Assembly: GCA_016432365.1 (NCBI GenBank)
Contig: CP066686.1
Span: 128,355-192,354 of the forward strand
Direction: 5' to 3'
Source: Candidatus Woesebacteria bacterium
Lineage (GTDB): Bacteria; Patescibacteriota; Microgenomatia; UBA8517
DNA: 64,000 bases
Part shown: piece after piece, positions 3,150 through 48,578 of the stretch
Layout of the letters: each line of letters opens with the position of its first letter
Position numbering within the stretch: the first letter of the stretch is position 1
Notes under the pieces: model-generated
What the model saw: the letters and a program-made list of their open reading frames with translations, nothing else
Told to the model about the DNA's origin: nothing
Database searches by the model: none
Program-made: the position numbers and the translations under genes

Positions 3150-4499
3150 TCAAAATTCAATTTCCTGATTTAAAATGGGAAGACCAATATCTTTTATTCC
3201 CAAATCTGCTGTTATTTTTTTGGAAAGCGCGGTTCTTGAAATATCCTCACCGTGAGTTATAAAAACTTTCTTTACATCTTTAATATGTTTAAGCCAGCTC
3301 ATGAGCTGTCCTTGATCTGCGTGCGAACTCATTGACCGGGTACTGCCAACTGTGGCGTTAACCGTAGTTTTAATTCCATTAATTACAACTTGCTTATCCC
3401 CTTCCTGGAGCGACCTTCCCAATGTTTCCACCCCTTGATACCCGACAATAAATAATCTGGTTGATGCTATCGGCAAATAAAATGCCGCGTGTCCCACAAT
3501 TCTCCCCCCTACCATCATCCCGCTACCCGCCACAATCACTTTGGGCCCGTTTTGACTATGCAAAGCCTGGCTTTCTTCCCATCCGGGAATAACGGTAAGA
3601 CCTGGGAAGTCAAATGGATTTCCGTTTTTAAATTCACTCTGGATATGCGAGTTAAATATTGGTGAATATTTGTTGTAAACCGCTGTCGCTTTTTGCGCCA
3701 TGGGGCCGTCCATGTAAACCGGTGTTTCTGCTAAAACTTTTCTGTCTTTTTTAAGATGCATAATCATATGCAATATTTCCTGAGTCCTGTCCAGAGAAAA
3801 TGAAGGTATAAGAAGAGCCCCCCCCGAAATTTCAATTGCGTTTATTTCCTTTCTGATGTCATAGCTCGGATCACTTTTTGGATGAAGTTTATCGCCGTAA
3901 GTTGATTCCATAACAACCGCATCCGCCTCATTAATTAGTTCGGTTTCCATCAAAAGATCTTCGGGGGTGTTTCCCAGATCCCCGCTAAAAACAATTTTCC
4001 TGATTCCGGAATTTGGATTTTTATCTATGATTTCCACACTCGCCGAACCTAAAATATGTCCAGCATCCCGAAATGTGACTGTAAAATCACCAATTGTTAC
4101 AGGCTTGCGATATTCTGTGGTTTTGAACTGTCCAATTGTCTTTTCTGCTCCCTCTTTGTTGTACAAAAACGGCTTGCCGTCCTGCTTTGCGATTTTGGCG
4201 CTGTCGAGTAATGAAATCTCCGTCAAATCACGGGTGGGCGCAGTCATCCAAATATCCCCGCTGTAACCTTTGGACGAGAGAATTGGCAATCTGCCACAAT
4301 GGTCTAAATGGGCATGGGTCAAAATTGCCCCTGTCAGATTACTTGGATCGTAATCATACGGCTCATAATTCAACTTATCCTCCGCTTCGGGCCCCTGGAA
4401 CATGCCCAAATCAATTAGAATTGACTGCCCCGAGCCTGAGGTTAGCACATACGAAGACCCTGTCACTGTCCCCGCCGCCCCTAAAAATTTAATCATCAT
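3150..4499 (-). CDS. MBL-fold beta-CASP ribonuclease (RNase J / CPSF-like)
   Basis: N-terminal MMIKFLGAAGTVTGS…LTHAHLDHCG metallo-beta-lactamase motif (HxHxDH), followed by a beta-CASP-like region at 449 aa. Confidence 0.7.
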   Translation of the reverse strand: MMIKFLGAAGTVTGSSYVLTSGSGQSILIDLGMFQGPEAEDKLNYEPYDYDPSNLTGAILTHAHLDHCGRLPILSSKGYSGDIWMTAPTRDLTEISLLDSAKIAKQDGKPFLYNKEGAEKTIGQFKTTEYRKPVTIGDFTVTFRDAGHILGSASVEIIDKNPNSGIRKIVFSGDLGNTPEDLLMETELINEADAVVMESTYGDKLHPKSDPSYDIRKEINAIEISGGALLIPSFSLDRTQEILHMIMHLKKDRKVLAETPVYMDGPMAQKATAVYNKYSPIFNSHIQSEFKNGNPFDFPGLTVIPGWEESQALHSQNGPKVIVAGSGMMVGGRIVGHAAFYLPIASTRLFIVGYQGVETLGRSLQEGDKQVVINGIKTTVNATVGSTRSMSSHADQGQLMSWLKHIKDVKKVFITHGEDISRTALSKKITADLGIKDIGLPILNQEIEF

Positions 4500-15885: not shown

Positions 15886-15925
15886 AATTTAGGCAGGAAA
15901 TTACGTTCTAATAAAACCTGGCTGG

Positions 15926-16209
15926 CTCCCCGGGCTGGATTCGAACCAGCGACCTTAATCTTACTCGCTCCCCCACATTTCTGTGGGACGCGGAACTATA
16001 TCTTGCACCGTTTTGTAAAAAAGCAAACGAGGTGTCTGGGTACATAGTTTCTGAACCTTCCAAGTACCATAAGATGCCTGGCTCGGCTGCGGGTTACCTC
16101 GTCTTTTTGACAGGGGCTTCACGCAATTCTCCCAATTTTCATCTCGATGTTTCCATCGAGAGCTGCTAAGAAATCACAGGATTCCGCTCTACCGCTGAGC
16201 TACCGGGGA
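15926..16209 (-). tRNA. tRNA-Asn(GUU) interrupted by a group I intron in the anticodon loop
   Basis: 5' exon is the reverse complement of 16176-16209: TCCCCGGTAGCTCAGCGGTAGAGCGGAATCCTGT. 3' exon is the reverse complement of 15926-15963: TAAGATTAAGGTCGCTGGTTCGAATCCAGCCCGGGGAG. Acceptor is a perfect 7 bp; D arm GCTC/GAGC; T arm GCTGG-TTCGAAT-CCAGC; the spliced anticodon loop is CUGUUAA. CCA is encoded at 15923-15925. Confidence 0.7.
15964..16175 (-). mobile_element. group I self-splicing intron, ORF-less, ~212 nt
   Basis: Conserved core elements present in order: P-like AATTGCGTGAAGCC, Q-like AACCCGCAGCCGAGCC, R-like GGTTCAGAAACTATG, S-like GCAAGATATAGTTCCG. 5' splice follows a U, with GCAG available as internal guide; omega-G precedes the 3' exon. 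Confidence 0.7.
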
Positions 16210-16227: not shown

Positions 16228-16238
16228 ATTATATCAAA
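16228..16238 (-). promoter_or_regulatory. extended -10 promoter (TTTGATATAAT) for the intron-containing tRNA
   Basis: The reverse complement of 16228-16238 is TTTGATATAAT, about 12 nt upstream of the tRNA 5' end. Its TG element is also the TGA stop codon of the HNH gene. Confidence 0.45.
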
Positions 16239-16572
16239 TTACACGCTTAACCGGAAGGTTAATCAATCCTCCGTGAATTTCCCGATGGCAATTTGCACAA
16301 ACCAAAATACATTTATTAATTTCTTCCTTAATTTTTTCCCAACTTCTGGTTAATCCCCTTGTAGACAAATTAAAGCTTTTATTCTTTTCGTCTAGATGGT
16401 GGAAATCCAAAGCGCCAATATATCTATCATAACCACAAATCTGGCATTTTCCTCCCTTGAGTTCAACTCCTAACGATTTCAGTCTTCTTCTTCTTTTAGA
16501 TACTGCGAGAACCAAATAGTGAGCTCTGTCTTTATATGTTCTAGTCTCTTTCCTTCGGGTTTTGTTGGGCAT
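16234..16572 (-). CDS. HNH endonuclease (free-standing homing-endonuclease-like)
   Basis: CQICGYDRYIGALDFHHLDEKNKSFN…CANCHREIH gives a CxxC…HH…CxxCH HNH motif; ATG at 16572 (an upstream TTG at 16581 is also possible). Confidence 0.75.
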   Translation of the reverse strand: MPNKTRRKETRTYKDRAHYLVLAVSKRRRRLKSLGVELKGGKCQICGYDRYIGALDFHHLDEKNKSFNLSTRGLTRSWEKIKEEINKCILVCANCHREIHGGLINLPVKRVI

Positions 16573-16602
16573 AACTAACAATAATCTCGAGAGGACTGGA
16601 TG

Positions 16603-17274
16603 TCAAGAAGTTAAACAATTATTTAGGTATTGTCCGCATAGTCCGGGCGTACGGGCGATTACAAAAACCGCCTTGCCGGGTTTGGGGTCCCAACCAAAAG
16701 CGCAGAGGATTGCAGCAATTGCTCCGTCAATATTTACAGGCAGCACTTTACCCTTTTGCTCCAATAGTTCTCTTGCAATTTCTTGGGCCAAATTTATATA
16801 TTCATCTGAGATTCCTTCATCTTTTGCAAGTTTGAAAAGAAGTTGACTTCTGGGGTCTACTTCGTAAATCCTGTGCCCAAATCCAGGTATTCTGTTCCCT
16901 TGCCTCAATTGTTCCTGCACTAAATTTTTAATATTTAATTTTTGATTTTTAATTTTGTACAGTAACCCCATTGCCGGTTCTATCGCCCCCCCGTGTGTAT
17001 CGTTTATTTGTAAAATCCCGGAAGCCACCGACTCGCTAATAGTCTTTCCTTCCTTTGCTGCCCTAATCGTTTCCGTAGCCGATGGGGTTTCTTCTCCATG
17101 ATCTATGGAAATATTGAGGATTGTTTCGAAAACTTTGCCCTGATGAATATCAGGGGCTTTCCCTGACAAGAGCTCAAAAATCATTTGAGAAAAACTTCTT
17201 TCAGGAGCAGTTTCAAGAAGCGATTCCTCTCCAAAATATGGCAAGTCGTTTTTATGTTGTATTGTCTTAGCCAT
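16603..17274 (-). CDS. citrate-synthase-family C-terminal catalytic domain protein (citryl-CoA lyase-like)
   Basis: Citrate synthase signature GFGHRIYEVDPR; DHGEETPSATETIRAAKEG…THGGAIEPAMG aligns with the His-containing catalytic segment; the N-terminal large domain is absent (223 aa). Confidence 0.65.
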   Translation of the reverse strand: MAKTIQHKNDLPYFGEESLLETAPERSFSQMIFELLSGKAPDIHQGKVFETILNISIDHGEETPSATETIRAAKEGKTISESVASGILQINDTHGGAIEPAMGLLYKIKNQKLNIKNLVQEQLRQGNRIPGFGHRIYEVDPRSQLLFKLAKDEGISDEYINLAQEIARELLEQKGKVLPVNIDGAIAAILCAFGWDPKPGKAVFVIARTPGLCGQYLNNCLTS

Positions 17275-17287
17275 ATTTGTAGTTTGC

Positions 17288-18187
17288 TTATTTGCTTATT
17301 TGCTTATTTAGCAACGTCGGTATTTCATCAAAATTCTCGGCAACCAAAATTCCGGCTTCTTTCAAAATCTTTCTTTTTTCGGAAGGAAGACCGCGCTTCC
17401 CTTCTATTATAGCTCCCGCATGACCGAATTGAACATCGCTTGGTAAACCTGTCGTGAATTCCCCCGCAATGTAGGCTACAACCGGTTTTTTGATTTTCCC
17501 TTTCCTTACATATTCCGCAATTTTTTCTTCATACTTCCCTCCAAGTTCTCCAAAAATTACCGAGGCTTTCGTATCCTTATCTTGTTCTAATTCCATTAAA
17601 AAGTCCGTAAAGTCGGTACATATTATTCTGTCTCCACCAATGCCCACAGCCCAGGAAACACCCATTCCGTTGTTTTTAAGAATTGAACCAAGCTCGGAAG
17701 TCATTCCGCCGGACTTGGATATAACTCCTATATTTCCCGCAACAAAAACCCTCTCCGGTGTTCCTCCACCGATTTGACCAAGTTTGATTTTGTTCTTGGG
17801 AGAAATAATCCCTACCGAACTTGGACCGATTATTGTTACTCTTTTTTTCTTGGCAAGCGCAAACATTTCAGCAGCATCCTTTGTAGGTACTTTTTCGGCA
17901 CCGATTAATATGAATTTTATTCCGGCATCGATCGCCTCAATAACCGCCCCTTTGGTAAATAGGGGCGGAACAAACTGTACGGTTCCGTCAACCTTTCCGA
18001 CTTTTTTCAGCGCCTCTTTTACACTGTTGAATATCGGCACTCCTTGTACTTCCTGCCCACCTTTACCCGGAGTTACTCCGGCCACGATCTTTGTTCCATA
18101 ACCCAGCATGTGCGCCAAAGAAGTTGAACCTTCCGCTCCTGTTAAACCTTGTCCTATAAATTTAGAGTTACTTTTTGGTAGATGCAT
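17288..18187 (-). CDS. succinyl-CoA synthetase alpha-like subunit (CoA-binding; GHAGA phosphohistidine loop)
   Basis: IGQGLTGAEGSTSLAHMLGYGTKIVAGVTPGKGG and QFGHAGAIIEG; start trimmed to MHLPKSN (ATG at 18187). Confidence 0.75.
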   Translation of the reverse strand: MHLPKSNSKFIGQGLTGAEGSTSLAHMLGYGTKIVAGVTPGKGGQEVQGVPIFNSVKEALKKVGKVDGTVQFVPPLFTKGAVIEAIDAGIKFILIGAEKVPTKDAAEMFALAKKKRVTIIGPSSVGIISPKNKIKLGQIGGGTPERVFVAGNIGVISKSGGMTSELGSILKNNGMGVSWAVGIGGDRIICTDFTDFLMELEQDKDTKASVIFGELGGKYEEKIAEYVRKGKIKKPVVAYIAGEFTTGLPSDVQFGHAGAIIEGKRGLPSEKRKILKEAGILVAENFDEIPTLLNKQISK

Positions 18188-19316
18188 ATTTTTTTGCCAA
18201 ACGGGACATAATTTTAGCCGATTCGGCGATTGATGTCTTTTCTCCATAAAGATGTAAATCAAAATCTTTAACTTTTTTAAGCATGTCAAAAGCTTCTTTG
18301 TCGTGTGGCCCTCCCCGGCGTATAACTACTGGGTAATCCGGTTTGGGATTCATCTTTCTCAATGATTCTATAAACCCGGTAAGTGTCTCAAAGATGTTGG
18401 TAAAGTTGGCAATAGCCCCAACCACCCAAAGACCATTTATTCCTTTTTTAGATAGCACAATCTTGGTGAGTTTTGCCACTTTTTCTTTTGAAGGATTGCC
18501 GGAATATTCAGTATAATTTGCAGGGGCCCCACCCGCTTTGACCAATGCGTCCATCGCAGTTAATGATGCTCCTCCGCCTGAGGCAAGAACCGCAATGTCC
18601 CCAGGTAAATCAAAATAAGTTGAACCGGCAGTTCCCCTATAATCACCCTCATCGATTTTCTTGGCGGCAATTTCCCTTCTTGTTGGACTGCGACCTGGAA
18701 TGGACCTGGGTGAATAAGTCCATTCTTTATGGCGTCCAATAGCTGAATCGTCCAACTTAACCTTAGCATCAAGCGCATAGACATTTCCTTTTTCATCAAT
18801 AACCAAGGGATTAATTTCCAGTAGCAACAAGTCGTTATCCAAGAACGACTTGATTAATTTAGGTAATATTTTTTGAATTTTCCCAGGTAGCGCAACTTTT
18901 GTTTTTTTGGGGTTAAGGGTGTCTAGGGGAACAATTTTCGATTCCCTTGTCTCAATTCCGGTTCCTCCCGATTCTGAAAATGTTAAGACAGGACCGCGAC
19001 TTCCTGTGTCATATGACAATGCCAAATAGAATTCGCGTCTGTGTTTGATTATTTCTTCTGCAAGTATTTCTGTAACAACTTCTCCGTTTATTTTTTTGCC
19101 CAAAAGTTTTTTAACCTTAGATTTGAATTCTTCCTTTTTGTTTACAAAAATAATTCCACCGGCATCTTTTCTCTTACCGGAAAGGACCTGAGCTTTAAGA
19201 ACCATCGGGAATTTAATTCTGACCTTATTTGTAGCCGAATCCACAATCTGAAACGGGGGAACTTTTATACCTTTATCCGAAAGAAGTTTCTTACCTTCAA
19301 ATTCGTATAGAATCAT
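18168..19316 (-). CDS. succinyl-CoA synthetase beta-like ATP-grasp subunit
   Basis: SucC/AclB-like ATP-grasp N-terminus (MILYEFEGKKLLSDKGIKVP…) with a C-terminal ligase-CoA domain. Confidence 0.7.
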   Translation of the reverse strand: MILYEFEGKKLLSDKGIKVPPFQIVDSATNKVRIKFPMVLKAQVLSGKRKDAGGIIFVNKKEEFKSKVKKLLGKKINGEVVTEILAEEIIKHRREFYLALSYDTGSRGPVLTFSESGGTGIETRESKIVPLDTLNPKKTKVALPGKIQKILPKLIKSFLDNDLLLLEINPLVIDEKGNVYALDAKVKLDDSAIGRHKEWTYSPRSIPGRSPTRREIAAKKIDEGDYRGTAGSTYFDLPGDIAVLASGGGASLTAMDALVKAGGAPANYTEYSGNPSKEKVAKLTKIVLSKKGINGLWVVGAIANFTNIFETLTGFIESLRKMNPKPDYPVVIRRGGPHDKEAFDMLKKVKDFDLHLYGEKTSIAESAKIMSRLAKKYASTKK

Positions 19317-23361: not shown

Positions 23362-25365
23362 TTATCTAACTTTCTTACTCATTATCTTCTCTTTTTCTTC
23401 TTTTCTCAGTCCTTTTAGAAGAATTAACGCCTCATGGGTGTCTACCGATTCTAAAAAGGTTGATGTCGGAATCACAAGCTTCTGATCTGGGAAAAGAATT
23501 ACTGCCTGCCCACCCAAGGGCGCCCTCTTTTTGTTGGATTTACCTCCGGAATCATATTCAGAAAACCAACCCGGAGCAACATAATCAGCATCTGGTGTAG
23601 TCATAAAGCCTCCGCCCAACATATGCCCTCCCGCAACGACATCGGATCTTAATAATGCTTTTCTCCTTGCCTGCACGAGACCTCTAAAAGGATCGAACTC
23701 ACTTCCGGAACTGGCTAGGTGATCCATAAGTAAAAATTCATATGAAGCCTTTCCGAAATCCAAATACATTAGAGATTGGTTAAGGTACAAAGGCACTTTC
23801 TTTGAAAACGCCCTATAAATATAAGTTCCCGGATATAAACGAGTTTTTCTTTCTCTTTCAAAACGAACCTTCCCCCTACTGTCTTTAATTTTTATGACAT
23901 TTCCCAAAACATCTTTCTTCCATCTGTCGTCCAACAAACTGGAGGACATCATAAAACCCAAAAGCCTGTCTTTATTGACAATCGGAGAGAGGTCATTAAT
24001 CATCCTATCTAGTACATAATCACGGCTATACATTTTAGCTACATCAGGATCTATAAAATGCCTCATTACAAGCCCGTATTCAAACGGATTTCCTTCAATT
24101 TGTTTGATAATTTCAAACAACTTCTCTTTATCTCTTTTCTCAAAACTGGTACTCGAATATCTGGCACCCGCCAGAAGAAACACCATTCTGGGGATACTGC
24201 CGGAGTCCTCAAATTTCCATTTGAAGTTTTCAAACATGGGAGTGTCAAACTGATTGTCTTTGATTTTTGTCCTCGAACTTTTCCTGTCAAATTCGGCTTT
24301 AGGTTTTCTTGATCTATCTATTATTTCTTCAATAAGTTCACCCGTCTTCTGCAGTTTTTCAGTTTTGTCTAACAATTTGGCTGCCTCATACAAAATTTCT
24401 CCTTTGTTAAATCCATACGACAACCAAGCGTATTCTCCATTTTTCCCGTCACCCTTTTTTCTTTCAGGTTGATTGAGAATCAACTGGACTCCCGGAGTTA
24501 GCGTTGGTCCTTTTGCCATTTTAGACAAATACGTATCGGGTCTATTGGGGTCGTTTCCTTTTGTGGTCCCGTTTGCAAAAAGAAGATGTCCTTTTTCCCT
24601 CCCCTCCTTAAGATCAAACACCATTTCCTTGGACACACCGGCCCTGTGATGCCAATGTCCGCCGCCGGCACCGTCAACATCTCCTCTGTGGCTGACATAT
24701 TCCCAAAGGCGGTTCCTTTGGGCCCCCAATGGATTCACTTCATCCGACCCGCCGCCACCCGGAGCGTGATAAACAAGTTGTGTGTAAGTCACACCGTTAT
24801 TTAAGTGAATAATTAACCTGCCTCCGTTATACAACACCTTCAGCTCTGTTCCATCAGGTTGGGTAAATCCGTCAGCAATCAGTTGAACTACATCAATTCC
24901 TAAGTATCTGTCTCCCCACCCCTCGTGACCATCAAAAGTTCCAACCATACAAATAATCTTTCCGGTTTTTACATATGGTTCAATAATTTTTTTGGCCGCC
25001 TTTATCTGATTGCTAAACCCTATCTCGACATTGTTGATGTGATCAGGAATACCGGGATTAGCCCCCTCAATGAAATCTCCCATTATAATTCCATACGTAT
25101 GGGGCTCCTCAAGTTTAGCTAACAGTTCATTGACCTTACTTTTGTCAGTTTGTACCGCAAACAAGTGAGTATCAGATATCGGGATTATTCTTACGGGCTC
25201 ATTAAACCCTACCGAAAGCTCTACCTTTTCCTGCAACAAGGTCATGTCTTCTTCGATTTCTTGCTTGAGTTGATGAACGGTGTCAAGTTTGATTTGAATT
25301 TTATCAAAAGCGGGGCGATCTTTATCTACAAATCGAAGTTTGATCTCCGGCATCTTTTCTTTCAT
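23362..25365 (-). CDS. large calcineurin-like metallophosphoesterase-domain protein
   Basis: IIPISDTHLF…IIMGDFIEG…GGGHWHHRAGV metallophosphatase motifs; the ~350 aa C-terminal extension has no known motif. Confidence 0.55.
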   Translation of the reverse strand: MKEKMPEIKLRFVDKDRPAFDKIQIKLDTVHQLKQEIEEDMTLLQEKVELSVGFNEPVRIIPISDTHLFAVQTDKSKVNELLAKLEEPHTYGIIMGDFIEGANPGIPDHINNVEIGFSNQIKAAKKIIEPYVKTGKIICMVGTFDGHEGWGDRYLGIDVVQLIADGFTQPDGTELKVLYNGGRLIIHLNNGVTYTQLVYHAPGGGGSDEVNPLGAQRNRLWEYVSHRGDVDGAGGGHWHHRAGVSKEMVFDLKEGREKGHLLFANGTTKGNDPNRPDTYLSKMAKGPTLTPGVQLILNQPERKKGDGKNGEYAWLSYGFNKGEILYEAAKLLDKTEKLQKTGELIEEIIDRSRKPKAEFDRKSSRTKIKDNQFDTPMFENFKWKFEDSGSIPRMVFLLAGARYSSTSFEKRDKEKLFEIIKQIEGNPFEYGLVMRHFIDPDVAKMYSRDYVLDRMINDLSPIVNKDRLLGFMMSSSLLDDRWKKDVLGNVIKIKDSRGKVRFERERKTRLYPGTYIYRAFSKKVPLYLNQSLMYLDFGKASYEFLLMDHLASSGSEFDPFRGLVQARRKALLRSDVVAGGHMLGGGFMTTPDADYVAPGWFSEYDSGGKSNKKRAPLGGQAVILFPDQKLVIPTSTFLESVDTHEALILLKGLRKEEKEKIMSKKVR

Positions 25366-27522: not shown

Positions 27523-27607
27523 GGAGAGGTCGCATAGCGGTCTAGTGCAGCGGTTTACTAAACCGCCGTATCGCAAGATACCGAGAGTTCGAATCTCTCC
27601 CTCTCCG
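27523..27607 (+). tRNA. class II (long variable arm) tRNA with apparent ACU anticodon; identity uncertain
   Basis: GGAGAGGTCGCATAGCGGTCTAGTGCAGCGGTTTACTAAACCGC…CCGAGAGTTCGAATCTCTCCCTCTCCG. Acceptor, D, T and variable arms fold well. Anticodon stem is GCGGT/ACCGC and the loop TTACTAA places ACT at positions 34-36; discriminator is G. Confidence 0.5.
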
Positions 27608-27633
27608 CACTGATATAATTGATTGTCCAACGA

Positions 27634-29970: not shown

Positions 29971-31749
29971 TTAATAACGCTTAAAAAAACCTACAAAAAA
30001 CTGCCAGATTGAAGAAAAAAACAATTTAAGATTGCGGCACAGGTTTCCCCAAAAACCAAGCGTCCCTGAATCGGTCGATTGGTTGTCGTCGAGAACAGGC
30101 ATGGCTGTCGGTATAGGAGAAGTTGGATTTACATTGATACTTGCCGCTGTCGGAGTCGGACTGGCAACAAAAGTTGTTGCACTCTGACTACCACCAAACC
30201 CCGTTTTTACCCTTAAAATGTTACTCCAAGCACCGGGCATACATCCATTCCCACCCCTGATTCTAAAATAATAGTTAGTGTTTGACTTGAGAGCTTTTAT
30301 TGTTAGCGATAATGCCCCTGTGTTGTCAGCTTGGTAATATTCAAACCCGTAAATCGGATTATTTTCAGTTAGACCATATGCTAGGTAATATCTATCGACA
30401 GGTTCGCCTGCCGGAACAAAATAGAGTTTAACAGAATTGTTAAATGCGTCTGCTTTTAATAGATGTGGCGCAGAGGACGGAGCCTGAGCACTACACACCG
30501 ATGGACCGGCAGCCGAAAGTGGCGGGAGGGTTGGAACCGGAGTCGGAACTGGTAATGCATATGAGTAAACAACTCCATTTCCCGTATCACCACCGGCAGA
30601 AGCTATGCCATAAAGATTGTAAGACATCCAGAAAGGGTGGCTATATGGCGAGGACCCGTCAGCAGTACCACCGGCAAATTCGTGAAGAAGAGTAAAACCG
30701 GTTCCGTCGGTGTTGATCTGATACAACACCCCGGCATTTGTATCACCGCCTTGGACTGAAGTTCCATACAAAACACCGCTTGAGATTACTGGGCCAATAA
30801 AAGGCCACTTTCCGTCACTGCCACCACCGGCAAATTCGTGAAGAAGAGTAAAACCGGTTCCGTCGGTGTTGATCTTGTAAACAGTACCAAAGTTACTATC
30901 TCCACCACTAAAAGAGGCACCATATATAACCCCATCCCGCAAGATCATTGATTTGGGTGAATCACTGTCACTCGCCCCACCGGCAAATTCGTGAAGCAAA
31001 GTAAATCCTGTACCGTCTGTATTCATCGAGAAAATTGTTCCTTTGTTACTATCTCCACCCTGGGCAGTTGTACCATATAAAACACCTGAATCCAATGATA
31101 AAGTGCTAATACTGGCATCGCTTCCATCGCTTGCCCCACCCGCGAATTCACGCAGCAGTGTAAACCCTGTACCGTCTGTATTCATCGAGAAAATTGTTCC
31201 TTTATTGCTGTCTCCACCCAAAGAGGTTGTACCATACAACACCGATCCGGATAGCGTTAAACCACCAATCGCCGGCTTACTTCCATCGCTCGCCCCGCCT
31301 GCAAACTCATGAAGCAAGGTAAATCCTGTACCGTCTGTATTCATTGAAAAAATTGTTCCCAAACTACTGTCACCTCCAACAAACGTGGTGCCATATAGTT
31401 TTGTGCCAGACAGTACCAGTGTCGATTCTGGTGTTGCTCCGTCACTTCCGCCCCCAGCAAAATTATGCAGGATACTATATCCAGAACCGTCTGTATTCAT
31501 TGAAAAAATTGTTCCCAAACCGGCGCTACCGCCGGCATATGTAATTCCATATAGTTTGGTTCCTGAACCGGCTAAACTTCCATAATAAGGGGTTGCCCCA
31601 TCACTGGGCCCACCGGCAAATTCGTGAAGCAGTGTCACGGCGGCATTCACCCTGGACGCAAAAGACAAAAAGGCAATAGATACTACAAGAAAAAAAGCCA
31701 AACGAACAATTCTCCGACCCATATAATTTATATTATCACGAAAAGTCAT
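29971..31749 (-). CDS. secreted tandem-repeat protein (GloVer-type 'choice-of-anchor' beta-propeller repeats) with C-terminal Fn3-like region
   Basis: Signal peptide, then ~8 repeats of LHEFAGG(A/G)SDG…LYGTT..GGDSN.GTIFSMNTDGTGFTLL. Confidence 0.65.
   Translation of the reverse strand: MTFRDNINYMGRRIVRLAFFLVVSIAFLSFASRVNAAVTLLHEFAGGPSDGATPYYGSLAGSGTKLYGITYAGGSAGLGTIFSMNTDGSGYSILHNFAGGGSDGATPESTLVLSGTKLYGTTFVGGDSSLGTIFSMNTDGTGFTLLHEFAGGASDGSKPAIGGLTLSGSVLYGTTSLGGDSNKGTIFSMNTDGTGFTLLREFAGGASDGSDASISTLSLDSGVLYGTTAQGGDSNKGTIFSMNTDGTGFTLLHEFAGGASDSDSPKSMILRDGVIYGASFSGGDSNFGTVYKINTDGTGFTLLHEFAGGGSDGKWPFIGPVISSGVLYGTSVQGGDTNAGVLYQINTDGTGFTLLHEFAGGTADGSSPYSHPFWMSYNLYGIASAGGDTGNGVVYSYALPVPTPVPTLPPLSAAGPSVCSAQAPSSAPHLLKADAFNNSVKLYFVPAGEPVDRYYLAYGLTENNPIYGFEYYQADNTGALSLTIKALKSNTNYYFRIRGGNGCMPGAWSNILRVKTGFGGSQSATTFVASPTPTAASINVNPTSPIPTAMPVLDDNQSTDSGTLGFWGNLCRNLKLFFSSIWQFFVGFFKRY
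30600..31640. repeat. tandem ~150 bp coding repeats (inside the 29971..31749 gene)
   Basis: Near-identical DNA blocks, for example 30655-30710 vs 30821-30875, and 30985-31060 vs 31140-31215 vs 31295-31370. Confidence 0.6.
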
Positions 31750-33026: not shown

Positions 33027-33390
33027 GGGGACGATCGGTTTCGACGAGAGCTCTTTAACAAAACTGCAAGCGGACTTTTATCTGTAGTCCTTAAAAATGG
33101 GTTAAAAAACTAAAGCTAAATCTTACGATTCAGCTCCCCGTTTCCAGATGGCATTCGCCTAAGGAATGGGTGTCCTTTAATTTGATTCTCGACCGAATTA
33201 GATGGGCATAAACCTGTTCGAGATGCTGTATAAATCTTATGATTTAGAGATTTATAAATAAGCCAATTACATCTTACCTTGAAATTTCTTGTTGATTAGA
33301 TAAGTTCAAGGGAAATTAAAAAATCAAATAAGCTTGTAGATGTTTTGTTTTAATGTTTTTCGGACGCGGGTTCGATTCCCGCCGTCTCCA
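33027..33390 (+). ncRNA. ssrA: tmRNA (SsrA)
   Basis: 5' GGGGACGATCGGTTTCGACG pairs with 3' CGTCTCCA. T arm is GGACGCGGGTTCGATTCCCGC. A candidate tag ORF reads …GCTAAATCTTACGATTCAGCTCCCCGTTTCCAGATGGCATTCGCCTAA (…MAFA*). Sits downstream of smpB. Confidence 0.8.
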
Positions 33391-33452
33391 CTCACATTCG
33401 TCGTTGCGCCATCGGTAATCGATAGTGCTCGGGTACTTCGTGTTTTGCACAC

Positions 33453-33474: not shown

Positions 33475-35469
33475 TCAGATGTGTTTGATATCAACCGAGT
33501 AGAGTTTGTCTCCCGTCAGAAGTATTATCTTTTTGTCCGTTTCAGACACCACAACATTTGAGGCCCCAGAAATAGAATCGCTTAGATATTGTGCTTTGTA
33601 TGCTCCTTTTTTGTCCGTAACCACCACCCTCTTACCCGCGCGATCAAGTAAATAAACATATTGTGTATCATCTCCTGCAAATATGGCGTCCGTATTGCCA
33701 ATTTCGGGAGTGACACCGTTAATTTTAAAGTTCTGGGGACTTCCCTGACTGTATTTCAAAATTTTCGAATTGGGGAAAAGCGCATAAACAGCTCCATCGA
33801 TTACCCACTGTCTGACTCCGGAAAAATCAGGCTTTGTACTTGCCGATAACCAATTTGTTTTATTAGGAAAATCATTACCCACTCCGGCATATCTGTATAT
33901 TTGATTGCCGGATACATCCAGTACGTAAATATTCCCCGCAAAAGCTTTTACCAAGGCCTGGCCATCCCAGGTTTTGTCTATAACTTTATTTTTTTGTTTA
34001 CCAACCTCGTAAACTCCGTCTGAGGATAAAATGAATGCCCTGTCTTCGTATGAAGCAAGGTCTTCGGCACTATCTATTACACCCGGACCCGCAACCACTT
34101 TACTTTTCTTGGTAGAGATAGCAATACTGACAATCCTTTTCCCTGCTTTGTCCAAAATAAATATATTCCCTCCTGACACCGTTAAAGCGTCCCCTTTAAA
34201 CCCTGAAGAAAGCAAACCCAAGTCTAAGAAAAGCTCTGGGGCAGCCAAAAATTCACCCAAAATTGAGGCCCGACTTGAATCCATCTTCTTTCTAACTGCA
34301 TCATATGCCGGATCTTTGATATGAAGACTCTCCAGCGTCGCAAGTTTATTGCTGGCGTCGTAGAAAAGCTCTCTTGACCTCTCCGGACTAACACTGGACA
34401 AACTGATTGCTTCATCTATCTCACTTTGAACCTGTTGAAGTATTCCTTGATACTTGTTTTTAACGTCATTAATTTTTTTCTGCCTAATTCCAAACCCGAT
34501 ACTTACAGCCAGAACAAAGATGAGGATTAAAGCCACGGAAAAGGTTAATTTTTTGCTTTGTGACGAGTATTCATCGTTGACTTCATTTTTTACATAAATT
34601 TGTTTTTGGGGCAACTTCTTTAAAATCCCGTCGATAACATTAGACAATTTTTGTTTGAAACTCGGCTGTGGAAAACTAAAACCATTTGCAACCGGAGGGG
34701 ATTCAAAATATTCTGCCTGTTCTTGGGAAAACCGGAGAACTATCGCGGCCATATTTCCGGTAGTGTTTTCGCCGCTAGACCCGGGAGAAAATATTGATAT
34801 TGCCTCTTCGGGGCTCCCGGCGGAAAGCGCGGCCTTAATAACACCCGGAGAAACCCCATCGTAAAAAGATTTTGTTCCAATGAGCATCACATCACCTTTT
34901 TTTGGAAAACCTGAAGAAACAATTGTCTCCTCATCGACGCTCTTTAGAATTGTTCCGATAGACCCCTCTCTACAGATTGTTACTTCCGCCCCGCCAACAG
35001 CAGCAGAGTAGACAACGTCTCCGCAAACGCTTGCGGCCGCAATTTCCACATCCCCCCAAGATTCTTTGAATCCCCTGGCCAAATTTTCCACCGCAGACTT
35101 GAGGGCGTTAAACGGTTTGACCGAAAGGTCGTTAAAATAATCCTCACGAAATCTCGCTATTAAGGCACGCCCGGCAGAGATAGTTTCCACGTCCCGGCTT
35201 TCGATTCTCGAAGTAGATGAAGCTCCCTCGACCTTGCGGTCGGGGTATCTTCTCCCAAGCTTCGTCGGGAGCGGAATCCCTCCGAAGCGAAACTCTTCGC
35301 TTACATCCGCGAGCTCACGCTCGGGGTATTTCGCGAAGGAGGATAAAACCACAAATAAATGTCCGCGGAGAGATTTCTTCTCAGCACCTTCGGGTACAAA
35401 ATCATAGGACTCGGCCCATCCGGGTCCTTTCGGAATTCCTGTTAATTTTGCGCTAACAATCTCAAACAT
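33475..35469 (-). CDS. single-pass membrane protein with cytoplasmic N-terminal domain and large extracytoplasmic C-terminal domain
   Basis: TM helix LTFSVALILIFVLAVSIGFGI near residue 300; no confident domain call. Confidence 0.45.
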   Translation of the reverse strand: MFEIVSAKLTGIPKGPGWAESYDFVPEGAEKKSLRGHLFVVLSSFAKYPERELADVSEEFRFGGIPLPTKLGRRYPDRKVEGASSTSRIESRDVETISAGRALIARFREDYFNDLSVKPFNALKSAVENLARGFKESWGDVEIAAASVCGDVVYSAAVGGAEVTICREGSIGTILKSVDEETIVSSGFPKKGDVMLIGTKSFYDGVSPGVIKAALSAGSPEEAISIFSPGSSGENTTGNMAAIVLRFSQEQAEYFESPPVANGFSFPQPSFKQKLSNVIDGILKKLPQKQIYVKNEVNDEYSSQSKKLTFSVALILIFVLAVSIGFGIRQKKINDVKNKYQGILQQVQSEIDEAISLSSVSPERSRELFYDASNKLATLESLHIKDPAYDAVRKKMDSSRASILGEFLAAPELFLDLGLLSSGFKGDALTVSGGNIFILDKAGKRIVSIAISTKKSKVVAGPGVIDSAEDLASYEDRAFILSSDGVYEVGKQKNKVIDKTWDGQALVKAFAGNIYVLDVSGNQIYRYAGVGNDFPNKTNWLSASTKPDFSGVRQWVIDGAVYALFPNSKILKYSQGSPQNFKINGVTPEIGNTDAIFAGDDTQYVYLLDRAGKRVVVTDKKGAYKAQYLSDSISGASNVVVSETDKKIILLTGDKLYSVDIKHI

Positions 35470-41127: not shown

Positions 41128-43890
41128 ATGTCAGAACACAAATCTGCACCTCAAATTTTAAAATTTTTTAAATTCCCTTTGCTTGTTTTCGTTTCCTTTT
41201 TGTCATTATTAATTATTAATTCTTCATTATTAATTAAAGTCGCCCGCGCGGCGAACGCCATTCCACCTCCAGGCCGGATTCCCTGCGATCCAACATTGGT
41301 TGCAGACCCGGAATACGCCTCCGATAGACCATATCAAGCCTCCCCCTGCGAGGGTGACGGGGCAACCATAACTTACTGGTGTGGAAACGATGTTGTCGTA
41401 ATGTTGGGAACTTCCAAAACCCCTTATTGTGACAGTGCAAACGGACAACAAACAGTCTGCCCTTGTAACGGCGGGCCAAACTGCGACCACACCGGCAGCA
41501 ATATGCAAACAATTGACATCGATTTAACAAATGTAGAACTTCCGATCTTGGGAAACACCAACGATACAAATAACAGCCAAACCGGAGACACAATTGATGA
41601 CGGTACAAAAGTAAGTAACTATGTTGCCTGGTACTTGGGAGGGGTTGACAACCGAGCTGAATATCCGGGGGATGCGACCACACCTGAAGGCCTTTCAAGG
41701 ATTGTTGACTTCTCCGGCCCAACCAGGAGGCTTCTCCCATCAATTATTCAAGAGGCCACCAGATCTGCAACGGTCGCTTCTGCAAACAATCAAGTGACTT
41801 ATACCGATAGCGAAACAAACCAAACCGTAACCGAAGCCGAGAACCATAATCAAATTGTGGTTTGTGGCAAAGAAGGAAACGGAGGATTTTTCGGTTGGAT
41901 CCTGGATGTTTTAAATCTTGGTAAAACCAATCCAATAGATTGTTACACCGGCGGTGGGTCACCCACCCAAGGAACGGGGTATAGGCTTAACGACTGGCAG
42001 GGCGACCTGTCTTTTTGGAATTCCGGCATTAATGCGATTGTCAGCGGCTTGGCCTCTCTTTTCCCGACCATTCCGGCTAGCGTCATCCAGGAATCCGTTG
42101 GCGATCATTGGAACAGCCGCCTCCCCCCACTTCCCTGGTGTGACAAAGACTGCAAACCTTTTGCAAGCGACGCACTGTATCAAAAGGCTTACAATGAATG
42201 GCAGGGAAAAACTTGTGTGTTGATTCCCGGAATAAATTTAGTTGTCTGCATAGACAACATTTTTGTACCAAACAAATACGCTGATCTTTTTCCGTACATT
42301 CCACTAGCAAAGAATATTGACAAAAAGGGCGCCCACATGATCCTCGACACTCACCTGGACGCACCAAAGGCCACAATTGAGTGCGGATCCCAGGGTTGTT
42401 ACGAAATTATTCATAATCCCCAACTTTACCTTGCTCATTCGGTTGAAAATTATCAGCTTTCAAGCCTACTCAAAAATACATATCTTCCCGGGGAGGCTTC
42501 TGGTAGTGCCGCTGCGACCCTTCCGACTGATGTTGAAAACAACGTAAACTCCGGTTTAAGTGGATGTAGAATTATTCCAAGTAGAAGCAACTCCGGGGAC
42601 GATGCCACATTTGATGAACCAAAAAGCCATATTGAAGTTGACGTAAGCTACATTGCAACAGATTTCCGTTGTACAAATATTCACGAGGTTTGCGACGACC
42701 CACAATGTACAACTACTCACTGGGAAGGAAACTGTTCTTCCGATGTCTATGCAACAATCGCAACAGTATCCAAAACCCCATTTGCCAACGAAATTTGGAA
42801 AAACACAGTGGCAGGAAGTGATTCAATCTTTAGAAGAATTTACCCCAAAACCGGTGTCGGGGCACCAATCCGATGCATTGCCGATAATCCCGCTCAATCC
42901 AAAGCCACATACACCGTTGACCCAAACAGCTCTAAGGAGGTTCAACTTTGGAGGATTATTGAACCTGACAAAAGTGCAGTAACAGGCCCCGGAGGAAACC
43001 AGGGATCTGACGAAATTGAAGCCCAACTTTACTACCCACATTATGGCGGCGTTCTGGATTACTTTCTAAACGGAATCCAACAAGCCTTGCGTCCCAAGGG
43101 ATTTGGCCCGGGACAACCTCAAAACGGACAATATTGTACAAATGTCGCTTGCGGAGAATTGCCGGATTTACCCAAAGCTTCCGGTTCATGTAATTTAGGT
43201 GGCGTCAGTTCCAAAGTGGGAAATATTCCGCAGGGCTTAAAAGATATCGTTTCAGCCGCGGCCCAAACATACAGTGTTCCGCCAGGGCTGATAATAGGAG
43301 TTATGTACGGCGAAGGAGCGTTTAACACAGACGCGAGCGGAAACTACACAAGGTATAACTGGACAGAAGAAAACGTAAAAAACTGGGCTTCGTGTGAGCC
43401 TCTACCTAACTGCTCGGCGAGTGCCGATCCTATAAACAGCGTTGTACCTTTTTACCACACATATTGGGACAAAATCGCCGACGATATTCTTCCCGACTTA
43501 AAGAAAATCGACCCAACCAAAACCCAGGCCGATCCGTGTAATTTACTGGACATTACTTTTGGTCTGGCAAAAGATCTGCACGACAACGCCGGAGGAGCGG
43601 GAATTGCAGGAAATTCGTGTTTTGGAATCACTTTAACAAGCACAATCCCATCGTCGTGCGATTGGAGTGACGATCAATACGAAACGTCAATAAAAGTCTG
43701 GGAAAACGGCGCTGACCCGGCTTGTTATACCAAACCCGGGAGTTGTTTATTGGGAACTGGCGGCGACACATGCCCCTTTGATACCGGTAATACTCCAGCT
43801 CCGGGGTGCGAATCGGCTGGAGCACATTCAACAGACCCCGGGGTAAATAGCCACAATGCGTGTGTGTGGGATGTGTCTCATGGTAATTAA
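41128..43890 (+). CDS. large secreted cysteine-rich protein (920 aa), hypothetical
   Basis: Signal/TM N-terminus; about 40 Cys spread through a low-complexity Asn/Thr/Gly-rich sequence; no confident catalytic motif. Confidence 0.5.
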   Translation: MSEHKSAPQILKFFKFPLLVFVSFLSLLIINSSLLIKVARAANAIPPPGRIPCDPTLVADPEYASDRPYQASPCEGDGATITYWCGNDVVVMLGTSKTPYCDSANGQQTVCPCNGGPNCDHTGSNMQTIDIDLTNVELPILGNTNDTNNSQTGDTIDDGTKVSNYVAWYLGGVDNRAEYPGDATTPEGLSRIVDFSGPTRRLLPSIIQEATRSATVASANNQVTYTDSETNQTVTEAENHNQIVVCGKEGNGGFFGWILDVLNLGKTNPIDCYTGGGSPTQGTGYRLNDWQGDLSFWNSGINAIVSGLASLFPTIPASVIQESVGDHWNSRLPPLPWCDKDCKPFASDALYQKAYNEWQGKTCVLIPGINLVVCIDNIFVPNKYADLFPYIPLAKNIDKKGAHMILDTHLDAPKATIECGSQGCYEIIHNPQLYLAHSVENYQLSSLLKNTYLPGEASGSAAATLPTDVENNVNSGLSGCRIIPSRSNSGDDATFDEPKSHIEVDVSYIATDFRCTNIHEVCDDPQCTTTHWEGNCSSDVYATIATVSKTPFANEIWKNTVAGSDSIFRRIYPKTGVGAPIRCIADNPAQSKATYTVDPNSSKEVQLWRIIEPDKSAVTGPGGNQGSDEIEAQLYYPHYGGVLDYFLNGIQQALRPKGFGPGQPQNGQYCTNVACGELPDLPKASGSCNLGGVSSKVGNIPQGLKDIVSAAAQTYSVPPGLIIGVMYGEGAFNTDASGNYTRYNWTEENVKNWASCEPLPNCSASADPINSVVPFYHTYWDKIADDILPDLKKIDPTKTQADPCNLLDITFGLAKDLHDNAGGAGIAGNSCFGITLTSTIPSSCDWSDDQYETSIKVWENGADPACYTKPGSCLLGTGGDTCPFDTGNTPAPGCESAGAHSTDPGVNSHNACVWDVSHGN

Positions 43891-44388: not shown

Positions 44389-46101
44389 ATGAAAAAACTG
44401 CTCTTAATTCTTCTTTCTTCATTCTTAATTATTAATTCTTTATTGTTTCCTTTTGCTGTAAATGCTCAACGCGGGGGACCACCCCCCACTCCAGCGCCCT
44501 CTGCCGCCCCATCAACTGCTCCAACCTGGTACAACCAAAGCTTTAAAGATTGGCAAACAAAAGTTTTTGATACCAAAAACCCAAGCGATATTTTTGGAGA
44601 ACGGTATACTGCAGCTCAGGTGCAATGGGTCATTTACAGTTTGTGGTCTTTCATAATTTATGCACCTTCCCAAGGAAATTCGGAAACCCAGGCCGTCATT
44701 ACTTGTCTCTTTGCTTCCACAGTAGACGTAACCGGATGTATGGACGCTTTTGCCAAAGCTATAGCAGAAAACCCAAGACCTCCTAGCGTTGCGCAAAAAA
44801 CAGATAACGAAAACATTTTTCAACTTGTCTTTGCATCCGACAGACCACTCTCCGGAATCTCTTTCGTAAAAGAGAAGGTTCAGAATTTTAGTCTTGTGCC
44901 CAGTGCACACGCCCAAACCGTCGGCTTCGGTTTTGGTGCTTTGTCCCCAATTCAAGGTGCCTGGAAGGCAATTAGAGACATCTCTTTTGGAATGTTTGTG
45001 CTTGTAGCTATAGTTTTCGCTTTTATGATAATGTTCCGGGTAAAACTTTCCCCACAGACTGTAATTTCTGTACAATCCGCTCTACCCAAAATTATAATCG
45101 CCTTAGTTTTGGTGACATTCTCGTATGCGATTGCCGGATTTTTGGTAGATTTAATGTATGTCGTGATTGGCTTAATTAGCTTTGCTGCCACTAGTATATA
45201 TGCATCAACACTTGGTGTCCCACTCGCAAACCTCGATTCTTCTTTTTATTTCAAACTCATGACCTTGGGCCAGACTTCCGGCATACCTGTAAATTTATCT
45301 GTTTTCGGGCTCTCTGCAGTTTTATGTTTTATTTTTATACTACCATTCATGATTCTTCTGATAATAATCGGGGCAATAATTATGGCGGCCTTTCCTCCAT
45401 CTATACCGGTGGTTTTATTTATACTAGTCGTTGCTATTGTAATAGTCTTTATAGTTTTCATTTGGAACGTTCTTAAAACCGTCTGGGCCCTTGTTAAGGC
45501 GTTTGTAAACATACTTTTGCTTACAATTTTTGCTCCAATTCAAATTGTCGCGGGAGTGCTTATTCCAAGCCTTGGTTTTGGTCAATGGATAAAAAGTTAT
45601 GTTTCAAACTTGGCTGTTTTTGTAGTCACGGGTACGCTGTTTTTATTTTCTATACTGTTTATTGTTTTAGGCATCGTAATAGGATTCCAAGATTTCGGTG
45701 CAGCTACCGCGACCATTATTGCGTTTTTTGTGAGCCCAGTTTTGGGTACTCAGGTATTTAATGCTGCTTTCCCTGTTAGTTACGCTGCTTGGCCGCCACT
45801 TTTGGGCATGGGGTCGAGTGCAGCTGTCGGACTTCTTTTCCTGGGTGTAAGTTTTGTATTATTTACCCTAACACCAAAGGCAACTGAAATAATTCAAGGA
45901 CTAATGAGCGGCAAGCCCTTTGCATACGGAACTGCTGTTGGTGAAGCTATGGCGCCCGTAGGATTAGCTTATGGGCAAACGGCCGGACCAGTCCTTGAAG
46001 CTTACAGGAGAGCCAATCTTGAAGAGATGGTAAGGACACGTCAGAAAGATATAACGGATCTGGTTGGGAAAATTATCCCCAAGAAAGCAGCCGGAAAATA
46101 A
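44389..46101 (+). CDS. polytopic membrane protein (signal peptide + periplasmic domain + ~8 TM), VirB6/TrbL-like candidate
   Basis: Topology only; no sequence-level proof. Confidence 0.45.
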   Translation: MKKLLLILLSSFLIINSLLFPFAVNAQRGGPPPTPAPSAAPSTAPTWYNQSFKDWQTKVFDTKNPSDIFGERYTAAQVQWVIYSLWSFIIYAPSQGNSETQAVITCLFASTVDVTGCMDAFAKAIAENPRPPSVAQKTDNENIFQLVFASDRPLSGISFVKEKVQNFSLVPSAHAQTVGFGFGALSPIQGAWKAIRDISFGMFVLVAIVFAFMIMFRVKLSPQTVISVQSALPKIIIALVLVTFSYAIAGFLVDLMYVVIGLISFAATSIYASTLGVPLANLDSSFYFKLMTLGQTSGIPVNLSVFGLSAVLCFIFILPFMILLIIIGAIIMAAFPPSIPVVLFILVVAIVIVFIVFIWNVLKTVWALVKAFVNILLLTIFAPIQIVAGVLIPSLGFGQWIKSYVSNLAVFVVTGTLFLFSILFIVLGIVIGFQDFGAATATIIAFFVSPVLGTQVFNAAFPVSYAAWPPLLGMGSSAAVGLLFLGVSFVLFTLTPKATEIIQGLMSGKPFAYGTAVGEAMAPVGLAYGQTAGPVLEAYRRANLEEMVRTRQKDITDLVGKIIPKKAAGK

Positions 46102-46103
46102 TA

Positions 46104-48449: not shown

Positions 48450-48578
48450 GCCCAAATTGTAGCATATTGACCAGTACTCAGTACAGAGCACGCAGTTGTC
48501 AGAGTATAAGACTGACAGGGTGCTAAAAATTCACTTCTCTTGACACCTCTTCTAAGCAGGTATACACTCGCGGGCAAG

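Follow-up and report, generated by a model that had tools for sequence, protein, structure and literature searches.

A compact group I intron with an A-U pair at the guanosine-binding site splits a Patescibacteria tRNA-Asn gene next to a predicted HNH endonuclease gene

A tRNA-Asn(GUU) gene split by a 212-nt insert

The window (i.e., the whole 64-kb stretch of DNA analysed here, from a Candidatus Woesebacteria bacterium) carries on its minus strand, at 16209..15923, a tRNA-Asn(GUU) gene including the encoded CCA, which is split by a 212-nt insert. The gene, its insert and a promoter-like element upstream of it comprise the following features:

16228..16236, minus strand: TGATATAAT, a promoter-like element of the extended -10 type, 19 nt 5' of the mature tRNA end, whose TGA also terminates the HNH ORF described below
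16176..16209, minus strand: tRNA-Asn 5' exon, 34 nt, 3' end ..CCUGU; acceptor strand, D arm, 5' strand of the anticodon stem and loop positions C32, U33, G34 and U35
15964..16175, minus strand: group I intron, 212 nt, no ORF, from GAUUUCUUAGCAGC.. to ..GAGCGAG (from Rfam RF00028 and covariation)
16163..16169, minus strand: internal guide UUAGCAG, intron bases 7-13 (read from the sequence)
15964, minus strand: terminal intron guanosine, omega-G212, directly preceded by the unpaired A211 and needed for a 7-nt loop CUGUUAA
15923..15963, minus strand: tRNA-Asn 3' exon (15963..15926) with the encoded CCA (15925..15923), from the sequence and in-silico splicing

The first-pass annotation of this DNA had proposed a tRNA-Asn(GUU) interrupted by a compact, ORF-less group I intron at 15926-16209; these coordinates are correct, and the gene lies on the minus strand. 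In the 5' exon, UCCCCGG forms the acceptor strand, GCUC-AGCGGUA-GAGC the D arm and GAAUC the anticodon-stem strand, with CUGU at the end. The 3' exon starts with UAA-GAUUA (U36, A37 and A38 followed by the 3' strand of the anticodon stem) and continues through the variable loop and the T arm to the acceptor strand CCGGGGA and the discriminator G73. Joined in silico, the exons form a 72-nt cloverleaf which ARAGORN calls tRNA-Asn(gtt), in agreement with the proposed identity. As a boundary test we used likeness to an intronless tRNA-Asn, following Nakagawa et al.: the spliced product aligns with the intronless tRNA-Asn of a related locus (L036) free of gaps, with 56 of 72 positions identical. 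The U1-A72 pair and discriminator G73 are consistent with Asn identity. The G27-A43 mismatch in the spliced anticodon stem, which had been entered as a caveat, is real; since position 27-43 is unpaired in 14 out of 14 aligned related tRNA-Asn genes, it is a conserved family trait and no defect. A search of the 64-kb window with ARAGORN and with permissive settings yielded no second tRNA-Asn.

The TGA directly followed by TATAAT is kept in six relatives (L003-L006, L009 and L027), and we infer that TGATATAAT serves as the tRNA promoter.

The insert was identified as a group I intron by a match to the Rfam model RF00028 (Intron_gpI) at 16185..15971, which spans the full model (1-253) with 46.9 bits and an E-value of 5.9e-11 in a local search and 8.3e-09 in a permissive search of the whole 64-kb window. 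The Infernal/Rfam comparison suggested by the first-pass annotation thus gave a significant full-length match (E = 8e-9 in the window), albeit one that falls 3 bits short of the gathering score of 50, and for this reason a default gathering run misses the intron. The mismatches to the model include both positions of the guanosine-binding pair, A127 and U182, at which the Rfam consensus bases are conserved. No further group I intron was found in the 64-kb window by the permissive Rfam search, and the default ARAGORN run did not report the split tRNA gene. Together with the covariation described below, the full-length match bears out the earlier view of a compact, ORF-less intron of 212 nt.

Structure and conservation of the intron

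Intron positions are numbered n, where the window coordinate equals 16176 - n. The following helices were assigned, all on the minus strand:

n 15-34: P2, GAAA loop
n 41-45/136-140: P3
n 51-56/83-88: P4
n 61-79: P5
n 89-121: P6/P6a
n 125-131/178-183: P7
n 142-170: P8
n 186-188/208-210: P9.0
n 189-204: P9, GAAA loop

We scored a hand-drawn structure (anticodon stem, P1, P10, P2, P3, P4, P5, P6, P6a, P7, P8, P9.0 and P9) on an alignment of 14 sequences, i.e., the window, L003 from a genome scan, 11 sequences from a metagenome scan and L027, the nearest relative with a G-C guanosine-binding pair. Standard pairs occupied 92.3% of the cells across the 14 sequences, compared with 35-43% when the partners were slid by 1-3 columns, and in 30 of the 65 pairs both partners had changed. 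The observed percentage paired, number of compensated pairs and covariation score were not reached in any of 500 shuffles. The compensated pairs lie in P2, P3, P5, P6a, P8, P9 and P9.0 as well as in the tRNA anticodon stem. Covariation and the full-length Rfam alignment both place in the insert the conserved P3-P8 core with its P3/P7 pseudoknot.

The minimum free energy (MFE) fold of the intron alone (z = -2.2) recovered P2, P4-P6a, P7, P8, P9.0 and P9, so that folding the insert, as the first-pass annotation had advised, gave part of the P1-P9 structure directly, with the P3-P8 core backed by covariation. For P9.0 we dropped the register 184-186/208-210 in favour of 186-188/208-210, because two relatives (L092 and L083) compensate only in the latter. 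Several members of the clade carry CCUAAG...UAUGG in P5, which we take to be the 11-nt receptor motif. Given that the structure has been kept through many compensatory changes while the exons are intact, the clade is structurally conserved and its intron under selection, and it presumably splices.

The internal guide defines both splice sites. Its GCAG pairs with exon CUGU to form P1, with a U35-G10 wobble at the 5' splice site and a P1 loop of only 9 nt, and its UUA pairs with the first three bases of the 3' exon (UAA) to form P10, so that P1 and P10 are contiguous on one guide. Both helices are invariant and fully paired in 14 out of 14 aligned sequences. The Rfam alignment sets the conserved splice-site U on U35, as expected from the earlier placement of the insertion after that base, and all 13 members of the A-U clade defined below end in ..GAG|UAA. 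A junction shifted to A211 would leave an 8-nt loop or a wrong anticodon. These observations support CUGU|UAA as the junction, with GUU as the anticodon and the insertion at 35/36.

Relation to published tRNA introns

The first-pass annotation regarded tRNA-Asn as an unusual host for a group I intron. This part of it does not stand, as the same host with an insertion at exactly 35/36 has already been published. Specifically, Nakagawa et al. (mSystems 2026) described 15 tRNA-Asn(GUU) genes with 35/36 introns among 95 complete Patescibacteria genomes, found the site to be enriched in Patescibacteria, located HNH homing-endonuclease genes within four of the introns and demonstrated accurate in vitro self-splicing of one Patescibacteria tRNA-Asn 35/36 intron (PMC13011429). 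According to that article, the class was already covered as Asn.4Ug by the tFind work of Williams (2020), a preprint with a list of 21 tRNA/site classes (PMC13011429).

Judged by its sequence, the window intron is, as a tRNA-Asn intron, a further member of this published class, being 62-73% identical to the published tRNA-Asn introns over aligned positions. It shares with the Patescibacteria 35/36 introns the host tRNA and the site, the U-1/G wobble, the terminal G, a guide complementary to the anticodon loop and the core blocks AAUUGCG, GGUAA.CCGCAGCC, GGUUCAGA.ACUA and AGAUAUAGU; like them, it is missed or mis-called by standard tRNA finders. It differs from them in the A-U pair at the guanosine-binding site (G-site), in having A rather than U at omega-1, and in the position of the HNH gene, which lies outside the intron. 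Unlike the Saccharimonadia examples, it has no extra hairpin between P7 and P3', and it looks Azoarcus-like. The Azoarcus pre-tRNA-Ile(CAU) intron (IC3) is likewise a minimal intron of a bacterial tRNA, ~200 nt long, in which P2-P9 are present and L2 and L9 are GAAA tetraloops; in Azoarcus, however, the tRNA differs, the insertion site is 3' of the anticodon and the pocket is G129-C176 (PMC13168695).

An A-U pair at the guanosine-binding site

The G264-C311 pair of the Tetrahymena intron, which binds guanosine, has been described as completely conserved in group I introns (PMC5192423). It is the sole sequence-constrained pair of P7: G264A abolishes the activity of the Tetrahymena ribozyme and is used as an inactive control, and a swap of 264:311 destroys activity (PMC2860135). 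In the window the two strands of P7 read as follows:

16045..16051, minus strand: P7 5' strand GAAACUA (consensus elsewhere in tRNA introns GAGACUA); Tetrahymena G264 corresponds to A127 (16049)
15993..15998, minus strand: P7 3' strand UAGUUC (consensus elsewhere UAGUCC); Tetrahymena C311 corresponds to U182 (15994), the pairing partner of A127

The J6/7-P7 segment is thus UUCAGAAACUAUG in the window compared with UUCAGAGACUA in other bacterial tRNA introns, and the 3' strand of P7 is AUAUAGUUCC compared with AUAGUCC. We established the equivalence to G264 and C311 by alignment to Tetrahymena (ACAGACUA / AUAGUCG), and took the triple-layer numbering of its G-site from PMC9943679.

To see how this pair is distributed, we surveyed 18 published tRNA introns together with 63 fetched tRNA-Asn introns. 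A-U was present only in the window and L003, and AGAGACU was found in all others; the AGUCC pattern was matched by all surveyed G-C introns except L027, which reads AUGUAGUCC. When metagenomes were scanned for the A-U version, 12 loci were recovered, of which 11 are tRNA-Asn genes with the same intron from different projects, with differences in exon variants and peripheral helices; the twelfth (L091) was rejected as an AT-rich chance match. Viral contigs gave 0 matches to the A-U pattern. In the 14-sequence alignment the pair is therefore A-U in 13 sequences and G-C in one (L027), where 11 of the 13 A-U members were found with a pattern that demanded A-U, so that the invariance of P7 among those 11 is by construction; detection of the window and L003 did not depend on this pattern. 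The window and 12 relatives thus depart from the completely conserved G-C pair of P7. L027 combines a G-C pair at the G-site with the rest of the clade's core, the ..ACGAG|UAA tail included; it also differs from the clade at 313 (A to C), 314 (U to G) and one J8/7 base. Because of the changes at 313/314, the omega-1 A211 loses its pairing partner.

A limited literature search did not turn up any natural A-U G-site, and in the accessible portion of the supplement of Nakagawa et al. the strings 'agaaacta' and 'atagttc' occur 0 times, compared with 83 occurrences of 'agagact'. A natural intron lineage with A-U at the guanosine-binding pair, a change that reviews describe as absent from nature, is what is new here.

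The A-U version of G264-C311 is a classic laboratory specificity switch, and the engineered Tetrahymena A264:U311 mutant carries the same substitution at the same structural position. In the work of Michel from 1989 and of Been and Perrotta from 1991, such an A:U pocket is said to prefer 2-aminopurine or adenosine, and the 1991 Tetrahymena double mutant was reportedly blocked in exon ligation with omega-G, for which it needed omega-A. The lineage described here differs from that laboratory-made variant in being natural, conserved and in keeping omega-G. We considered what the pocket might bind, and regard as possible but less likely than not the broader proposal that, in this conserved natural lineage, the change from G-C to A-U goes together with either a shifted G-A-U triple or the use of adenosine or ATP in the first step. 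Under the first option, the A-U pocket may bind G in another geometry (e.g., G N1-H to A N7 and G O6 to A N6-H), which the altered 313/314/omega-1 context, the 3-bp P9.0 and P10 could aid.

A true change of cofactor, in which adenosine, ATP or another non-G nucleoside would act in the first step and omega-G would be fitted through tethering by P9.0/P10 or through a shifted triple, strikes us as rather doubtful, although several observations are in line with it. A-U is found in 13 independent sequences compared with G-C in ~80 other tRNA introns, and L027 differs from the clade not only at the G-site pair itself but also at the neighbouring positions given above. Furthermore, adenosine transfer has been achieved with an engineered mutant ribozyme (PMC3245953; PMC9971707), and P9.0 and P10 greatly raise the affinity for tethered G (PMC2588497). 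Against it, the last intron base is G in every member, where a junction at A211 would spoil the anticodon loop; the ligation block reported for Tetrahymena would apply to an A:U pocket with omega-G; and the P7 invariance of 11 members follows from a scan that demanded A-U. A 2022 review states that an 'ATP-responsive group I ribozyme' has not been observed in nature; if the use of adenosine or ATP were true, the clade would be a natural example. The natural A-U clade offers a direct and cheap experiment on the evolution of nucleoside recognition, and could show whether tRNA maturation can be tied to a nucleotide other than GTP.

We consider it very unlikely that the G-site change has inactivated the ribozyme and that the split gene is a pseudogene with a backup tRNA-Asn elsewhere in the genome. 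The use of G264A as an inactive control speaks for such a loss, and a backup could lie beyond the window, which itself holds no other tRNA-Asn. However, the double substitution is compensated and preserves a Watson-Crick pair, and the clade, found in many metagenomes and with several variants of the tRNA-Asn exons, shows compensatory changes in six intron helices and in the tRNA stems, which a pseudogene would not keep. In addition, intron-bearing and intronless copies of one anticodon rarely coexist in a genome (PMC13011429).

A free-standing HNH gene upstream of the tRNA gene

By sequence, then, the lineage breaks the rule of the G-C guanosine-binding pair, and it also has a putative free-standing endonuclease partner. 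Two further features lie upstream of the tRNA gene:

16234..16572, minus strand: predicted free-standing HNH endonuclease gene, 112 aa, ATG at 16572 (MPNKTR...), stop codon at 16236..16234
16578..16606, minus strand: promoter-like TTGACA-17-TATTGT just upstream of the HNH ATG (10/12 matches in a consensus scan, a consensus match only)

The HNH ORF lies outside the intron, with 24 nt between its stop codon and the 5' end of the tRNA. Its product is 52-66% identical to four HNH proteins encoded within published tRNA-Asn introns and shares with these intron-borne homologues the invariant C-x2-C, FHH and C-x-N-C-H. The likeness extends to the C-terminal tail G-L-x-x-L-P-V, encoded in the intron-borne genes by a stretch that overlaps the guide and P2. 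The match to Pfam HNH (PF01844) scores 20.1 bits, just under the cut-off of 21.4. The N-terminus MPNKTR is common to the window, L003 and L005, and reads MANKTR in L004. Most of the upstream HNH copies group together in a neighbour-joining tree; among them dN is ~0.1 and dS is saturated, with dN/dS of 0.07-0.10 where computable, a pattern of purifying selection at the sequence level. The promoter-like site would give a leaderless or near-leaderless HNH mRNA; promoter-like sites in the region were not in excess over shuffled sequences. A conserved HNH homologue of intron-borne enzymes placed, as read from the sequence, directly upstream of the tRNA gene is the second new element of this locus.

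The genome scan detected 492 HNH relatives, almost all in Patescibacteria MAGs. The nearest relatives by HNH and exons are likewise mostly from Patescibacteria MAGs (e.g., Woesebacteria and Berkelbacteria), with some records labelled Gammaproteobacteria; they suggest that the window itself comes from Patescibacteria. We fetched 80 loci of the 492 relatives, in which the gene was arranged as follows:

55/80 loci: HNH in the P1 loop of a tRNA-Asn 35/36 intron
11/80 loci: HNH directly 5' of a tRNA-Asn whose intron has no ORF
2/80 loci (L041, L073): HNH downstream of the tRNA gene
1/80 loci (L036): HNH beside an intronless tRNA-Asn
11/80 loci: arrangement not resolved

Three members of the A-U clade (the window, L003 and L088) have an intact HNH gene, whereas L089 carries a frameshifted copy, L087 and L090 retain only its tail, and the other members lack it; as far as these sequences go, such gain and decay is the usual pattern of homing endonuclease genes. 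L004 and L005 match L003 exactly in the 5' exon and the anticodon arm, and since the three loci share the HNH gene and the exons and have unrelated introns, the comparison points to intron replacement at one tRNA-Asn site. No second tRNA 5'-exon remnant, which a tandem duplication would leave, was found upstream of the HNH gene.

Free-standing endonucleases paired with introns are known from collaborative homing, for example the cyanophage S-PM2 psbA intron with F-CphI, and T4 mobE with I-TevIII (PMC3984707). Unlike those pairs, the host here is a cellular tRNA, and the free-standing HNH protein is a close homologue of enzymes encoded inside sister introns. By analogy, homing in trans (collaborative homing) is most likely the best-fitting mechanism, in which the HNH protein would promote the spread or retention of the module. 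The family occurs inside introns, upstream, downstream and beside an intronless gene, and different introns occur in identical exons; it thus forms a natural series for the association and parting of endonuclease and intron. Against this mechanism, the HNH homologue of L036 beside an intronless tRNA-Asn does not fit simple self-protection by the intron.

Another idea is that splicing depends on help from a protein, e.g., that the neighbouring HNH protein acts as a maturase and offsets a weakened G-site. An intact HNH gene does flank the window intron and those of L003 and L088, yet the contig DNA of at least 7 A-U members has no HNH gene, and in L089, L087 and L090 the intron persists beside the frameshifted copy or tail remnants, which makes the idea highly improbable.

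Alternative splice sites and tRNA annotation

In intron mode, ARAGORN calls the gene tRNA-Thr(agt) with a 212-nt intron, which would place the insertion at 33/34 and give a mature tRNA-Thr(AGU); here too, U stands at -1 and G is the last intron base. This placement is hardly credible, since there is no P1 around U33 and no P10 for AGU, the identity to the intronless tRNA-Asn of L036 is 54/72 compared with 56/72 for Asn, the U1-A72 pair and G73 are Asn-like, and in L004 and L005, with identical exons and a different intron, the only U/G-compatible junction gives GUU. Moreover, a two-base mis-call of the ARAGORN type has been described for the tRNA-Asn 35/36 class, in which the 35/36 junction was sequence-verified in the spliced product of a related intron (PMC13011429). 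The His(GUG) reading that the first-pass annotation had left open was rejected, as it demands non-canonical bases at both intron ends (A at -1 and a last intron base other than G) and has no P1 or P10.

Because default ARAGORN and Rfam runs miss the gene and intron-aware ARAGORN reports tRNA-Thr, carrier genomes seem to have no tRNA-Asn, and this apparent loss affects genome completeness scores.

A proposed pathway for splicing and spread

Resting on the observed anatomy, homology, covariation and distribution, our preferred reading (with a probability of roughly 0.88) is that the locus is a functional tRNA-Asn(GUU) gene split at 35/36 by a compact, putatively self-splicing group I intron of the Patescibacteria type, with an A-U pocket and an HNH protein that would promote its spread or retention. 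Under this reading, a precursor would be transcribed from the TGATATAAT element and the intron would fold into P1-P9, with L2 and L9 closed by GAAA tetraloops like those of Azoarcus-like minimal introns. [quoted passage not shown] G212 would then enter the same P7 pocket, the 3' exon would pair through its UAA with the guide (P10), and ligation would produce the loop CUGUUAA. The nucleoside-binding pair in the pocket would be A127-U182 rather than G-C as in other group I introns. Finally, the HNH protein may cut intronless tRNA-Asn alleles (trans or collaborative homing), such that the module of tRNA, intron and HNH gene spreads or persists.

Genomic context

Elsewhere the window encodes DnaA, DnaG and RpoD, a tmRNA, a cluster of Ser/Arg tRNAs and many large ORFs in which no Pfam domains were found. 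A three-gene set resembling citryl-CoA/ATP-citrate lyase adjoins the HNH gene. Comparison of six flanking proteins with the relatives revealed no conserved gene order, with a single weak match to a RibD_C-like ORF in L094. The nearby Ser/Arg tRNA cluster is common to the window and L087.

Placement of the HNH gene around tRNA-Asn

We compared the position of a single HNH endonuclease family relative to tRNA-Asn in the window and in 80 loci (L003-L082) of the 492 relatives that a genome scan with the HNH protein returned, and found four placements:

HNH gene within the P1 loop of the intron: 55 of the scanned loci
HNH gene immediately upstream of tRNA-Asn: 11 of the scanned loci, and the window (16234..16572, minus strand)
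HNH gene immediately downstream of tRNA-Asn: L041 and L073
HNH gene upstream of an intronless tRNA-Asn: L036

The published survey of tRNA-Asn introns in Patescibacteria, whose conclusion was limited mobility, tallied only intron-internal endonuclease genes (Nakagawa et al. 2026; PMC13011429).

Three loci with near-identical HNH genes (L003, L004 and L005, each at 3363-3640; approximately 82-84% amino-acid identity to the HNH protein of the window) differ in the intron itself. The 5' exon and anticodon arm of L004 and L005 are identical to those of L003, but L003 carries the A-U type of intron (A-U at the P7 guanosine-binding pair), whereas L004 and L005 carry another type resembling the Microgenomatia tRNA-Asp intron. 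This pattern resembles the replacement of one intron by another at the same site.

At the intronless locus (L036:2289-2792), the HNH homologue lies directly 5' of tRNA-Asn(GUU), and a partial repeat of the tRNA anticodon/T-arm segment (CACTGTTAAGGATAAGGTCGTAGG) comes after; this repeat may be a scar left when an intron was lost or by homing.

Promoter-like elements

In the window, the TG of an extended -10-like element of the tRNA (16228..16236, minus strand) forms part of the HNH stop codon TGA. Another promoter-like element, TTGACA-17-TATTGT (16578..16606, minus strand), ends 5 nt upstream of the HNH ATG, a spacing which suggests that the HNH mRNA may be leaderless.

Variation in P4

All 14 introns of the alignment, with the nearest G-C relative (L027) among them, keep a U-C mismatch within P4 (intron U55 and C84; window 16121 and 16092), where the published relatives show G-C. 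The P4 5' strand is an unusual site for peripheral insertion. Two metagenomic members of the A-U clade (L085:3146-3404 and L094:5477-5749) have approximately 35-45 extra nt there, forming two small hairpins between UUG and CGUG, and a third locus (L092) has one additional U at the same spot.

Other genes in the window

Adjoining the HNH gene on its upstream side is a three-gene set (16603..19316, minus strand):

ATP-grasp and citrate-binding protein
CoA-ligase alpha-like protein
short citrate-synthase-like protein

By sequence, the set is a predicted citryl-CoA synthetase/lyase or split ATP-citrate-lyase arrangement, which would be unexpected if the host has a reduced Patescibacteria genome. 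Seven window ORFs of 570-984 aa had no Pfam match at E <= 1e-5. ORFs located elsewhere in the window include:

23362..25365, 29971..31749, 33475..35469, 41128..43890, 44389..48491 and 54168..57122: the seven ORFs without a Pfam match
52310..54163: TraG/VirB4-like ATPase

A tmRNA (33027..33393, plus strand; Rfam 140 bits) has a short tag predicted by ARAGORN, GHKPVRDAV, which lacks the usual ..LAA ending. The gene between tRNA-Ser(GCU) and tRNA-Ser(UGA) (27523..27608, plus strand) encodes a tRNA that has a long variable arm, the anticodon ACU (Ser) and A at the wobble position. A34 is unusual in bacterial tRNAs outside Arg(ACG). The Ser/Arg tRNA cluster is also present at the related locus L087, without the ACU gene.
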